Shown here one piece after another: positions 1,281 to 60,459 of a DNA stretch of 64,000 bases; position 1 is the first letter of the stretch, and each line of letters opens with the position of its first letter. Origin of the DNA: Eledone cirrhosa (lineage: Eukaryota); assembly GCA_964016885.1 (NCBI GenBank), contig OZ024744.1, forward strand, positions 66,092,001 through 66,156,000. The letters run 5' to 3'. The notes beneath the pieces were generated by a model that searched no databases, was not told the DNA's origin, and was given only the letters and a program-made list of their open reading frames with translations. The translations under genes and the position numbers were made by a program.

Positions 1281-1438
1281 ATATATTGAAAGAATAACAA
1301 GGACGATTGGTTACTCCTTCCTTACATTTATTGGTAGGTGACGCGCGTTTCGCCACTGATCAGTGGCGAAACGCGCGTCACCTACCAATAAATGTAAGGA
1401 AGGAGTAACCAATCGTCCTTGTTATTCTTTCAATATAT
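1281..1438. repeat. Perfect 158-bp palindrome centred on a hammerhead stem II (PLE-tail snap-back)
   Basis: The two 79-bp arms are exact reverse complements about TGA|TCA at 1359/1360. The axis reads GACGCGCG-TTTC-GCCACTGATCAGTGGC-GAAA-CGCGCG-TC. Confidence 0.9.
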
Positions 1439-1684
1439 ATATATATATATATATATATATATATATATATATATATATATATATAAAACTGTAGTTGTCT
1501 GTGTGTGTCCTCATTTTTGCAAAGTCTATACAAATCCACATTTCTACTCCGATTGACTTCAAACTTGCATTTATATATTCCTTGCGGTCTAAAGATATTA
1601 ACTGCAGCTTTTATTTTTCAATTTTGTGTTGTTAAAGGAGTGTTAGGCGCCGGTTATCTATCTCTGTCGCGCCCTTATAATATA

Positions 1685-2960
1685 CTAGCAGTAAAGCCCG
1701 GCGTTGCTCGGGGTCGCTCAGTAGCTGTGTTAAAGTTACAATGTTAAGTTTCTTTTTTGGCTTAAAAACTGTAGTGTCTACTGTGCAGACTTGCATGTGG
1801 TGTTTTTGATTAATATTCCCTCAACCAACAATATGCCTTATGAAGTTAAGAAAACATAACGATAACCCGAATGTTATAACAAAAGAGGATGCTGGGGATA
1901 AAAACTGCACTGGTTATTTATTAACAAAGATCGAACATGTAAACACTGCAACGCAGATAAAAACATTAGCGTAACCAAATTATCAGTTATGTCTGTCTGC
2001 ACGCCTATATCACCTCTCTGCACGACTGTCTGTCTGCACGCCTATATCACCTCTCTGCACGACTGTCTGTCTGCACGCCTATATCACCTCTCTGCACGAC
2101 TGTCTGTCTGCACGCCTATATCACCTCTCTGCACGACTGTCTGTCTGCAGGCGTATATCACCTCTCTGCACGACTGTCTGTCTGCACGCGTATATCACCT
2201 CTCTGCACGACTGTCTGTCTGCACGCCTAACGAAATTTACAGATACATATATTTTAAATAAACTTATATAATTTTTGCTTTTTTTTTACGAAATATTTGC
2301 TTGTTTTACGTAGTCTTTAAATATACTTGTTTTCAAGTAAAAATATTGTTTTAAAAGGCTTTTAAATGGAAATGAAGCAAAACGGAAGCTTAGTGTTCGA
2401 ACTGATGAATTTTGCAGGTCAAAATTTTGCTGGCTCGACAACTGTTCGTGTATTGTGTTAATGTCATTTTAAACGCTGAGAAAGCCAGCGTAAAACGTAA
2501 GACGCTCAATGTAAACAGAACAAAGGGAAATAACTCGTCACTTACGCTCAAAAATCGATACATTAGATTCGATTTCGTCACATACGGTGGGTCAATTTGA
2601 AATATTTTTTTTCCGATGTCTTCGCTAGGGCTCAATGTACAAGTATAGCAATTTCGGTGCAATTCCATCAGAGATTCTAAGAGGAGATGTGTGCCAAAAA
2701 TCGATAGACAGACAGACAACCACAGCTTTATATATATAGAACAAAGGGAAATAACTCGTCACTTACGCTCAAAAATCGATAAATTAGATTCGATTTCGTC
2801 ACATAGGGTGGGTCAATTTGAAATATTTTTTTCCGATGTCTTCGCTAGGGCTCAATGTACAAGTATAGCAATTTCGGTGCAATTCCGTCAGAGATTCTAA
2901 GAGGAGATGTGTGCCAAAAATCGATAGACAGACAGACAACCACAGCTTTATATATATAGA
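1685..2960 (-). mobile_element. Non-autonomous Helitron nested in another Helitron, with a duplicated 220-bp 5' end
   Basis: Minus-strand 5' end A|TCTATATATATAAAGCTGTGGTTGTCTGTC at 2960; 3' hairpin CCCGAGCAACGCCGGG + CTAG at 1688-1685. 2521-2740 and 2741-2960 are near-identical tandem copies. Confidence 0.8.
1990..2228. repeat. 36-bp minisatellite (~6.5 units) inside the Helitron
   Basis: Unit CTGTCTGTCTGCACGCCTATATCACCTCTCTGCACGA-like is repeated directly with no variable spacers. Confidence 0.95.
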
Positions 2961-56155: not shown

Positions 56156-59100
56156 TTTATATATATATATATATATATATATATATGTATGTATGTATAT
56201 ATATATATGTATATATATATATAAATATGTATGTATATATATATATGTATATATATATATATAAATATATATGTATATATATATATATGTATGTATGTAT
56301 ATATATATATGTATATATATATATATATATAAATATATATATATATATAAATATATATATATATAAATATATATATATATATATGTGTATGTATATATAT
56401 ATATATATATATACATATATATATAAATATATATGCGTACAGGTGTATTTGCATATTCATGTGTACATAAAATGACACACACATGCAAATATGTGTGTGC
56501 GTGGGTGGGTGTGGGGATATATTTGAAGTAAATACACAGTTGCTTAAATGATAAAGCTATTGCTAAACCATTTCTGTAAACCATGTTTCATTCCTAGTCA
56601 TAGGCAATTCCCTAATTCCCCTATTACTGCTTTTGGGCAGGTATAGATGCCACAGATTTTATCAATTGAGCTGTTTGCCCATTGATGGATACTTCTGACT
56701 TTGAATAGTCAGGTAGTTGGCTTTGTTCATGGAACTAGTAAACAACTGAAATATTTATTTCACAGGACTTCATAACTCTTTAACATTTACATTACTCTCT
56801 GTATATTATTATATTTTCATGGTAGAGTGTCGGACGCCATGCTTTGACGCATAGACTTACAGCCCTTGTCATTCTGAGTTCAAATCCCGCCAAGGTTAAC
56901 TTTGCCTTTCATCCTTACGGGGTCGATAATATAAAGTACCAGTAATGCACTGGGGTAATTGCTGGCCTTGTGCCAAAAGCAGAAATAATTATGGTAAAGG
57001 CTTTACCTCACATAATTATCTCACATAATATCAAATGTATGAAATTTTTATATTATTTATTTTGAGAACAATGCCATAACATCAGTTTGAAGAGCCACTA
57101 ACAGCCGGTTTAAACCGAAAGTAGCGAGAGAATTTTGGCCAGATATGGCCAGTTTAAAAGCTAAAGCGTTAACATAACAAGAAACTAATCAATCAAATTC
57201 CCATAACTGATGCAGCCAGTCTTTGAGGTGTCATGGTAGACGTTTGACTGTGTGTGTCCATCATAGCATTTCACTGGGCCTTGGAAGTGCTCAGTGGTGC
57301 CTATCTCCTCTCCAAGCATCCAGTCCCTCACTAAGTTTAGTTTGCCACCGGGGTATGGCTTAAAAATGTCCCAGAGCCAGAAGTGAAAGTCAGGTGAAAA
57401 TGTGAATGAGTGTAACTGCCCAAGGATGCCACTGCCAGAACATCAAGGTATTCTCTCTACTAGAATACCTCAGTAACAATATGATGTTTCTTTAAATTCT
57501 TGATGAAGAAAGTATGTCCAGTATTCTTCTAATCACTTCACTCTATTTGCAAAAGAACATTAGATAACGCTATATCCAGTATTGAAATAATGTTTCTTCA
57601 AATCACTTCACTCTATTTTCAACAGAACATTAGATAATGGTATACTCAATATTGAAATAATGTTTCATTAAACTGTTTTACCTTAGTGTCAAAGGGACAG
57701 TGAATGATGGTACATTTAGTTTTGATAATAATGAAGCCTATCATAAGCATACAATTTAAATTCTGACCAAACCATAGACTCTCATACCCTCATATTTTTT
57801 TTTAGTAGTAGAATAGCAATTGTATCACTATTGTGACAATATAACAAGTATTTTAAGGCTTGTGAAAATATATGGTGCCTTTATTCAAATTACTTTTTTA
57901 CATTTTTTTTTTGTTGCCGGTAAAAGCATTTGGTGATAGTAACCTTGAATCATCCTGATCAATTTTGCCATCAGGACCTCTGGTGTTGTCAGTCTTTTGA
58001 GGAAGAAGCCAACATATGGAAGAGTGACTGATACAGTGGATGTCACTGGCTGTTCTCTGTGGTGATGCTTTTGTCCATGGGGTGCAGTTTAGATATACCA
58101 CCTATCCAGGAGTTTAGAGACTGTCCCTACCCCTTTGCCCGCATTTCATTATTTTCTTGTGTTCCATTTTTTGTGAGGAGAACAGAGGGAGTCGATTATA
58201 TTGACCCCCAGTGCTTAACCAAATATTATCCCAGTCAAATACTGGGGGATCAATAAAATCAACTTTCCCCTTCTATCACACCCTCTCAAATTGCTGGCCT
58301 TGTGCCAATGACACCAAGAATTATCTTAAGTCTTAAACTGAACAAAGAGAACTTGAGACTTTAAGATGAAAGCCTGCTCAGATAACAAACGACATGTAAA
58401 AGAAATGGTTCCATTAAGAAAAATAAGTACACCACACCTTGAATTGTATTTTAAGAATTGGAAGCTGTGTAGGATAAAAGAAACTTGTGTGACAACCACA
58501 GATACCATGTTTGTGTAGGCAGATTATTACTACACCACCAACACCTTTTTTCTTCTTCTTCTCCTTCTCCTTCTTCTTAGAAGTGACACTTTGTACTCTC
58601 ACTTTAAACCACACTCTCACATTCTTACTGCAAATCTGCTGAAGCAAAATTTGCCTTTTATCCTTGGGGGGGGATAAATAAAATACCAGCCCAGGGCAAG
58701 GGATTGATTGAATGCTTTATAGTATTTTTTCTGACTTTGTGAGTTTTGAGTTCAAATCTCTTCTTTTGTCACTTGAAAAATTGAGTGACAATAGGAAAAG
58801 AGTCAATGTCATTAAATCACCCAAGAAACCTCATATGAGATGCAATCCTATAAGGGGCTGGCTAAAGCTATGTAGGTGTGTGTTGTAGCAACAACAGTAG
58901 CATACAAATTACACACATATAATTACAGCATATCAGAAGTAAAGGCTATAAAATTACCAGCAACACGAAATATGCTATTAGGTGGTACTGGTAATTTTTT
59001 ACCTGCAGATGCCTGCTTAGCCTTTTTCATGCCAAACCACCTCAAACCGATCTTAGTTCTATGATAGAAAGCTGTTTATTTTGAGGTGCATATATTTATC

Positions 59101-60286
59101 TAAAAATCGTTTATGGTCATTTAATGTAAAAACTTTGATAAGTTAAGTTCCAAACACCAGTTAAATCACTCCAAATTCTCGCTTATTTTCAAAATTACAG
59201 ACGTCTTTTATAAGAAATATGATAATTGAAAGCATTAATGTCTAATGTTGAGAAGCAATCATAGGACAGGAAGTTTCTGCACTGTGGTATCGTCACATAG
59301 AACAAACAAGCAGAAACTGCAATTGGAACCAATACCTTTTATAACTTTCTCTTTTGACCAAGTAGTGAATCAATAATTGGGTCTGTGGGACCCCCTTTAG
59401 CTTAAATGTCTAAATGTTCTAAAGAGGTTATTTGTTACAGCTGCAAACTGATCTGCACAAATGTCTTTCTATTTTAAGAATAGCAGTTTGGTGATCTTAT
59501 ATTGTACATACATATGCCCCCCACCCATATATATATATGTGTGTGTGTGCACACACATACAAGCATGGAAGAACAGACAAAAAATGCCAATGCTGATGAT
59601 GAAGACATATATACCTACGAAGATTGGAAAGAAATGAAGCTTGCATGCTGTAATGGAAGTGTAATAGTAGTATATGTGAACGGCAAAGCATAAATGGCTT
59701 GAGAGAAAAATTGACCTCATGCCAATTACATCTCTCAAAGGCAATGACATAAGATCAAGATCTTTTGCTTTATTCAGTGCTGCAGAAGACCCACATCCTC
59801 ATGTGCATAGGATAAAGCGACATTTAGTGGTCTCTAGCATGCACCATACACCACTTCTCCCACATCCTCCATACACCCTCATGTCTTAAACCTTTCCCTT
59901 CACCAGCTAAGTACCTCATCCTGACCTACCTCTCAAATTCCCACCCTACATACATGCATCTCCACAACCATTTTCTACTTCTGACCCCCTGCTCCTGACA
60001 AACCCATATATATCAGCAAGGAAAGATGAACATGCTCTCCCACAAGCAGGGAACAATAGGCATAAAATGATGATGATGGTGATAATATATACACACACAC
60101 ACACACATATATAAAAGTTAACAAGATATCGTTTAAGGTAATCCAAGTACAGGTTATGAGTACTCTGTATCGAGGATAGTTTTAACGTTCGGCATTGTTT
60201 GACTCAACAAGACGTTTCTTTGCTTGAGTGGTCGATTTAAGAAAGTCCCTAGGCAGACGGTTCTTGGAGTAATAATAGAAAATAAG

Positions 60287-60459
60287 TGAAGAATAATGTG
60301 GATCGACTATACAATAGGGCTTATTTAAAGTATTAACTATTGTTTCATTAGTTAGGTGTGTCTAAAAATCGCAGATCGCCAGAAGTTACGTCACTCGATT
60401 GAAACAATTGTCAGTACTTTAAATAAACCGTATTGTACAGCCGACCATGTTATTCTTCA
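60287..60459. repeat. Old diverged inverted repeat with GAAA-CAATTG-TC hammerhead half
   Basis: 60287-60347 is the imperfect reverse complement of 60400-60459; the inner edges are TGTTTCA / TGAAACA. Confidence 0.7.

Follow-up and report, generated by a model that had tools for sequence, protein, structure and literature searches.

Endonuclease-positive (EN+) Penelope-like elements (PLEs) are described as carrying an inverted copy of the 5′ pseudo-long terminal repeat (pLTR), an optional tail on one side, 5′ truncations and palindromic junctions, and as using microsatellite targets (PMC8557442, PMC3846280; here and below, published work is cited for those parts of each source that were examined). 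The origin of the inverted pLTR and the one-sided tail is unsettled: self-priming was proposed for inverted PLE junctions in 2013 (PMC3846280), and in vitro work of 2024, in which a Poseidon PLE protein cut and extended both strands, ends at two reverse transcriptase (RT) start sites bounding the tail (PMC11167929). Here we analyze a 64,000-nt stretch of the genome of Eledone cirrhosa (the window; assembly GCA_964016885.1, contig OZ024744.1, positions 66,092,001 to 66,156,000), which contains four palindromic insertions, or stubs, derived from four high-copy pLTR families of this (TA)n-rich, 3.0-Gb genome. The stubs of this genome separate the models by large numbers, and most of them probably arose from two short cDNAs primed from both nicked strands of the target and joined head to head, often at a likely capped RNA start.

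Several further observations on related elements bear on this reading. Hammerhead ribozymes paired on opposite strands, 100–700 bp apart, were noted by Cervera in 2014 (PMC4209133), the promoter of PLEs has been located in the pLTR (PMC2377424, PMC3846280), and L1 twin priming and two-RNA insertions provide a working analogue (10.1101/2024.08.27.596794, PMC11702581, PMC13526784). Inverted pLTRs, one-sided tails, junction palindromes and the self-priming proposal are thus already known; what is new is a testable mechanistic reading based on the cap and the start site. The more surprising idea of a ribozyme-guided fold-back does not hold as a rule.

The four insertions and their parent families

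Masked self-blastn of the window detected inverted repeats at 1287–1432 (100% arm identity, E 9e-71), 15205–15474 (97%), 26063–26683 (87%) and 60275–60471 (73%, E 1e-19). All four are genuine and far beyond chance. We refer to the families as F1 (the 1281 element), F2 (15201), F3 (26062) and F4 (60287), and to the sister subfamily of F2 as F2p, the two together forming the F2 group; positions with a minus sign are relative to the G of GAAA. The coordinates of the insertions are collected in Table 1.

The original prediction, made from the letters of the window, placed the axes within TTTC..GAAA, which is seen at three of them (TTTT..GGAA at 15201), and the three words that it gave for stem III and the TC cleavage triplet are present exactly as written. 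It took the elements to be two-tailed. This is correct for 15201 and 26062, both arms of which are tailed; 1281 and 60287 are longer than noted and one-tailed, their left arms extending to about 1184 via a ~100-nt F1 tail and to about 60120 via a ~155-nt F4 tail, respectively, and their right arms having no tail. The arm ends of 60287 are uneven (the tailed arm ~52 nt and the tail-less arm 1 nt upstream of GAAA), the axis of 15201 lies ~16 nt upstream of a decayed GAAA (15353–15356), and the palindrome at 26062 overruns the element by 39 nt on each side, through the microsatellite and a unique 21-nt flank. Each of the four axes is placed between GAAA and a hammerhead core, be it intact, variant or decayed.

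In the search for parents, thirty loci per search were examined for each family. Parents with a hammerhead-like 5′ half, the half that the palindromes lack, exist, as the original prediction required: the F4 parent has a full CTGATGA core at −87 (87 nt upstream of GAAA), and 12 of 15 long copies of the F2 group have the variant core TTGANAA at about −63, with position 7 free. This U3:A8 variant is known from Schistosoma PLEs (PMC4209133). In both cases the core is accompanied by stems I–III of a type I hammerhead. The F1 parent mostly has an altered core, CCGTCGA at −72 (CTGACGA occurs only in one sister copy, L201). That of F3 has, upstream, a decayed core-like word and, 20 nt downstream of GAAA, a CTGAAGA that is not paired. 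Neither of the two carries an intact core. Thermodynamic folds of the long-stem parents, both single-sequence and alignment-based, did not favour or recover the hammerhead form, and a descriptor requiring contiguous stem II pairs misses the F2 and F4 parents. The hammerheads of the F4, F1 and F2 parents (L093, L151, L169) have stem II regions of 58–80 nt and escape Rfam and short descriptors; the stem II region of F2p contains promoter-like elements. Among the 150 of 190 Rfam matches listed for the window there was no hammerhead, all of them being miRNA-like matches to hairpins or repeats. Palindromes of this kind are prone to mis-annotation as miniature inverted-repeat transposable elements (MITEs) or miRNA hairpins.

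The Penelope identity of the pLTRs, also part of the original prediction, is borne out by remnants of open reading frames (ORFs), by the presence of two 3′ ends and by the inverted pLTR. Tblastn and motif searches revealed ORF remnants adjoining the pLTRs of F1 (L151, L152), F2p (L169) and F4 (L162), as well as those of two further families in the window, H1 and H6; Atlas matches were eukaryotic RTs at 0.93–0.96, and Pfam gave no match for the two window PLE ORFs (5246, 43083). No ORF link was found for F3 or for subfamily F2 among the ten loci listed, and F3 is included because of its shared anatomy, F2 because of shared anatomy and homology to F2p. F1–F4 are pLTR pieces of PLEs inserted in (TA)n, three of them linked to putative Hydra-clade ORFs, F2 by way of its sister F2p. 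This clade is the probable one for the ORF-linked families on the basis of motifs, namely a CxCX5C linker, DKT, an RWK-like motif, CxxC by a conserved E, and the (TA)n targets; Neptune, our initial guess, was dropped in favour of Hydra on the same motifs. EN+ PLEs have a pLTR joined to an ORF for an RT with a C-terminal GIY-YIG-type endonuclease; this association is seen in the ORF-linked families, and the optional 3′ tail and inverted 5′ pLTR of an EN+ PLE are both present.

Two other identities were rejected. MITEs would be copied as units with fixed terminal inverted repeats, whereas here junctions and arm lengths vary from copy to copy and the F1 axis is unique. Non-LTR retrozymes would form tandem head-to-tail units, each with a type I hammerhead, whereas the four elements are single head-to-head insertions without a full ribozyme. 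A likely array of the latter type, with one type I hammerhead repeated about eleven times in tandem, was seen elsewhere (L202, about 3300–3400, and its neighbours).

Geometry of the pairs and position of their axes

To the window we added a genome sample of 140 evenly spaced 10-kb stretches (1.4 Mb), and the arms of eleven families were mapped by blast on real long copies. Sixteen duplicate or overlapping loci, arms of <24 nt or <40 bits, and families H5 and F5 were dropped before counting, and pairs with a gap of >20 nt were left out of the pair-geometry and stem II counts.

Nine families have arms with either of two discrete 3′ ends, an inner and a tailed one, at similar frequencies. The 197 head-to-head pairs comprise 157 with one tail-less and one tailed arm, 4 tailed twice (counting L162, although its right arm runs on into the ORF), 6 tail-less twice and 30 with an unclassified end. 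The mixed class therefore accounts for 157 of the 167 pairs with both ends classified, and for 51 of 63 in the 1.4-Mb sample. Of the 157 mixed pairs, 62 have a tail-less arm that extends upstream beyond its partner by >10 nt and 25 a tailed arm that does so (p 9e-5), the other 70 being level within 10 nt; in the 1.4-Mb sample the corresponding numbers are 21 and 5. Pairs with a longer tail-less arm cannot come from a single cDNA started at the tail. In L151 and L152 the ORF remnant lies on the tail-less arm and the tailed arm is short. Two pairs (L289 and L112) join different families, and each of their arms ends near the usual place of its own family.

These proportions bear directly on the mechanism first suggested for the window, in which a cDNA started at the tail self-primes in hammerhead stem II and copies itself back. 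The four window axes do lie between a core-like word and GAAA, and an axis near GAAA is not rare, both ends being ≤30 nt upstream of it in 21 of the 63 sampled pairs. In the F2 group, and in this group alone, ends are in excess in stem II: unselected arms give 3.6 times the flat expectation, and the density of ends is 12–15 times higher there (66 over 1,122 nt at risk) than 3′ of GAAA (18 over 4,533). Both ends fall in stem II in 50 of 80 pairs of this group.

The enrichment predicted for all families is absent elsewhere. Ends of unselected arms in stem II reach 0.12–1.09 times the flat expectation in the seven intact-core families (F4, H1, H2, H3, H6, H7 and H8), and both ends are in stem II in none of the 56 pairs of the intact-hammerhead families H1, H2, H3, H6 and H7 and in few of the others (1/14 in F1, 1/11 in F3, 2/12 in F4). 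The F1 axis word occurs once genome-wide, against 2,309 read-through words. An arm ends between −36 and −60 in 2 of 83 pairs, the partner reaching further in both. Self-priming through stem II would retain its loop, and the absence of this loop at F2 junctions speaks against such priming. Fold-back in stem II is not general, and self-priming there is very improbable indeed as the general route, given also the 62 pairs with a longer tail-less arm and the copies with an extra G on both arms (see below). The prediction of four such elements was selective: all are present, but other head-to-head junctions of the window (those of the insertions at 4198–7225, 17187–17532 and 18572–19477) are far from stem II.

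Snap-back of a self-primed cDNA does fit the 26062 element. Both of its arms are tailed and its palindrome continues into unique flank, which matches a snap-back on a target-primed cDNA. An inverted flank duplication was found in this element and in L078, and in none of 156 pairs with one tail-less and one tailed arm. These two are likely true snap-backs, a minority in a population in which most pairs have a single tail; the 26062 family (F3) has no established stem II. Short templated fold-back inserts, which would also be in keeping with self-priming, were seen at some junctions (L055:238-417, L056:1499-1670, L325, L343). We take them to resemble products of polymerase theta end joining.

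A hairpin self-primed away from the chromosome, or an antisense-templated intermediate, from which the endonuclease trims the tail of one arm at integration, an idea along the lines of Arkhipova 2013 and Craig 2021, would predict one tail-less arm of either length. It would also accommodate the interpretation of palindromes at inverted junctions as self-priming (PMC3846280) and the divergence between arms of one pair, which at 5.7% is below the family median of 9.3%. Such an intermediate offers no way of placing an untemplated G on both arms or of joining two families, and in vitro the RT was found to start at both ends on nicked DNA (PMC11167929). We regard it as unlikely.

In one further locus (L135, about 1400–1720), a tailed F2 arm lies head to tail on an H8 copy with no (TA)n between them. 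This join suggests a template switch between families.

Arm-end peaks, the extra G and the proposed origin

The arms of several families stop at preferred positions. In the F2 group, 30 of 76 unselected arms end between −18 and −16 (the axis of 15201 is 2 nt short of this F2 peak), and in H6, 32 of 56 end within a 15-nt span just upstream of the core. Peaks were also observed at about −90 to −100 in F4 and at about −85 to −115 in H1–H3. A TATA-like box is located at −29 to −31 from the end site in H6, F4, H2, H3 and two of the three F2p copies listed.

Many arms carry an additional G at the end. The base preceding A(−18) of F2p (n = 26,181 genome-wide) is the parental T in 16,029 cases, G in 5,050, A in 827 and, by subtraction, C in 4,275. 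In all 20 F2p loci with G that were fetched (14 in list order and 6 picked because both arms have G), similarity to the parent ends at the G and the partners differ; the partner arm cannot supply the G in 8 of the 14. The parents of H6 have C at the corresponding site. Of 2,284 matches with another base there, the first 100, counted by eye, have G in 76, T in 13 and A in 11, with six pairs carrying G on both arms. The same extra G occurs in H1 and on both arms of the H2 pair L279. In L1 and SVA, an untemplated terminal G is attributed to copying of the m7G cap by the RT (PMC3287187). The G and the TATA spacing are indirect signs of a capped RNA polymerase II (Pol II) start site, and a G on both arms requires two separate run-offs, which excludes snap-back for those copies.

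These observations argue for the following route, which we consider the probable origin of most stubs. (i) The element protein would nick both target strands within (TA)n, (ii) each nicked strand would prime one cDNA, the inner RT start site being used for one and the outer (tail) site for the other, (iii) each cDNA would stop early or, having reached the capped 5′ end of a Pol II transcript begun in the pLTR, run off its template, and (iv) the far cDNA ends would be joined by end joining, aided by short palindromic words where the ends are level. Run-off at a capped start is proposed as the reason why ends peak at family-specific sites, why a TATA box lies 30 nt upstream of them and why they carry an untemplated G; double priming, the cap origin of the G and end joining are what we infer here. 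The arms of 1281 and 60287 would then be one-off early stops, and the 15201 element would lie near the F2 peak, which falls in stem II because the start site is there. A start site within stem II likely exists only in the family group of 15201, and elsewhere it would lie upstream of the ribozyme.

A stronger version, to which we give about even chances, holds that integration always requires priming at both of two fixed RT start sites. Tens of thousands of stubs would then be paired full-length strong-stop cDNAs of the capped 5′ end, their axes would map promoters to the base, and the RNA of one family group would start inside its own hammerhead, lacking the core and unable to self-cleave. PLE promoters could in this way be mapped from DNA alone.

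Amplification of a few palindromic master copies as MITE-like units, with axes and extra G inherited, would account for the junction words that recur in F2 (about seven GAAC-A/T-GTTC) and in F2p. Against this, the G is always terminal, is found alongside different partners and is shared by three unrelated families as well as by several F2p subfamilies. The junctions of F1, F3 and F4 are scattered, and the F1 axis is unique. Inheritance from master copies is therefore very unlikely. There is next to no chance that the palindromes are fold-back chimeras of assembly or amplification, as might be suspected from the identity of the 1281 arms over their shared part: the arms of the other three elements differ by 3–27%, ends are unequal and defined by family, flanks differ, and the class comprises tens of thousands of members. 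Contigs of other runs over 1100–1520 and 26040–26700 contain the families and bridge neither axis, and are uninformative on this point.

Besides this lack of bridging contigs, several points weigh against double priming with run-off at a cap. Pairs tailed on both arms make up two of the four window elements, compared with 4 of 197 overall. The chimeras L289 and L112 could be deletions between neighbours. An allele test for two templates gave a weak signal (68 of 428 arm differences, 20 expected), in which 24 differences are an H1 alignment artefact and F1 and F2p are at the null. Arm ends obtained by blast against single copies are accurate to about ±5 nt, and less so where subfamilies differ. 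F2, H1 and one F2p copy have no TATA box, and knowledge of the TATA position entered into the choice of the +1 of F4, H2 and H3. Subfamily F2 itself gives no evidence of the extra G: of its 9 arms that end at −18, 8 have C as the next base and 1 has G. Cases with C at −19 form a large class, of which a parent allele explains just a part (3/10). The end clusters of F1 and F3 are broad and have no assigned start site, and H7 has none. The one RNA run, in the form of contigs, contains 0.06 of the words. Finally, the G could result from terminal C addition at a strong RT stop instead of from a cap.

Other features of the window and comparison with known systems

Table 1. Penelope-like insertions in the window (window coordinates; strands in brackets)
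Feature	Position	Arms	Axis and landmarks
5′-truncated Hydra-type element	4198..7225	inverted H1 pLTRs, each with full hammerhead; one-sided tail	ORF 5246-6457 (-) between the pLTRs
F1 head-to-head insertion	1184..1438	tailed 1184-1359 (-), tail-less 1360-1438 (+)	axis 1356-1363, 8-bp palindrome CTGATCAG; GAAA 1368-1371; palindromic stem III and TC up to 1379
Solo F2p arm	15065..15124 (+)	tail-less	start 17 nt upstream of GAAA, right after (TA)n
F2 head-to-head insertion	15203..15476	both tailed	axis is palindrome 15336-15343 (ATCCGGAT at 15336)
Second H7 head-to-head insertion	17187..17532	short tailed arm, long tail-less arm	
H7 head-to-head insertion	18572..19477	full hammerhead on each arm	cores 18809 (-) and 19303 (+); the junction lies a long way upstream of stem II
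F3 insertion	26063..26683	26102-26378 and 26379-26646, both tailed	axis AATT 26379-26382
H6 pLTR and start of its ORF	43083..44966 (-)		TATA box 44592-44585; putative start site 44562; full hammerhead with core 44556 and GAAA 44537; both 3′ end sites; RT ORF with RW[KR] and DKT
F4 asymmetric head-to-head insertion	60120..60471	tailed 60120-60400 (-), tail-less 60400-60471 (+)	GAAA 60401-60404

Four further features of the window were noted. A 98% perfect palindrome at 17553–17825, absent from the original list, has the axis TTTTC-hairpin-GAAAA, and its relatives at ~ten loci have no CUGANGA within 110 nt upstream. An ORF of a LINE-type RT with RVT_1 and zf-RVT is located at 10283–12445 (−). 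Positions 61060–64000 contain a degenerate tandem array with a unit similar to the upstream region of the F1 pLTR, and a TA-rich microsatellite of ~3 kb, which swamps repeat finders, occupies 51700–54830.

Junctions of the stub type are not described in the examined parts of the retrozyme preprint 10.64898/2026.07.22.740005, PMC6155905 and PMC13282606. We found no description of PLE axes that are marked by a cap and defined by a start site, subscription papers and the supplements of Craig 2021 and Frangieh 2024 being outside the scope of the search.

The stubs resemble EN+ PLEs (Craig 2021, PMC8557442; Arkhipova 2013, PMC3846280) in the head-to-head inverted pLTR, the one-sided tail, the 5′ truncation, the microsatellite targets, the junction palindromes and the TATA/initiator (Inr) in the pLTR. 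They differ in that the tails are 45–155 nt long, as against 30–40 nt, and most copies are ORF-less; the junction peaks resembling start sites and the untemplated G are absent from the published descriptions examined. The ORF-linked families share with the Hydra clade (Craig 2021) the CxCX5C linker, DKT, RW[KR], CxxC before a conserved E, hammerheads and (TA)n targets. This clade is described, in the parts considered, as a small number of families, whereas here the word of one subfamily alone has 26,181 copies; for F3, no ORF link was seen in the loci listed.

PAc Poseidon (Frangieh 2024, PMC11167929) provides the two internal RT start sites, the cutting and extension of both strands and the AT-rich targets. 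The sections of that work examined leave the later steps open; the genomic products described here point to cDNAs that run off at the start of the RNA and are joined head to head. In L1 (10.1101/2024.08.27.596794, PMC11702581, PMC3287187), likewise, both ends are primed, joins occur at microhomologies, some insertions derive from two RNAs and an untemplated 5′ G is found. As far as these sources go, the second primer of L1 anneals internally wherever chance allows and the two cDNAs lie next to each other, whereas in the stubs the starts are fixed and the cDNAs overlap almost wholly, which produces palindromes.

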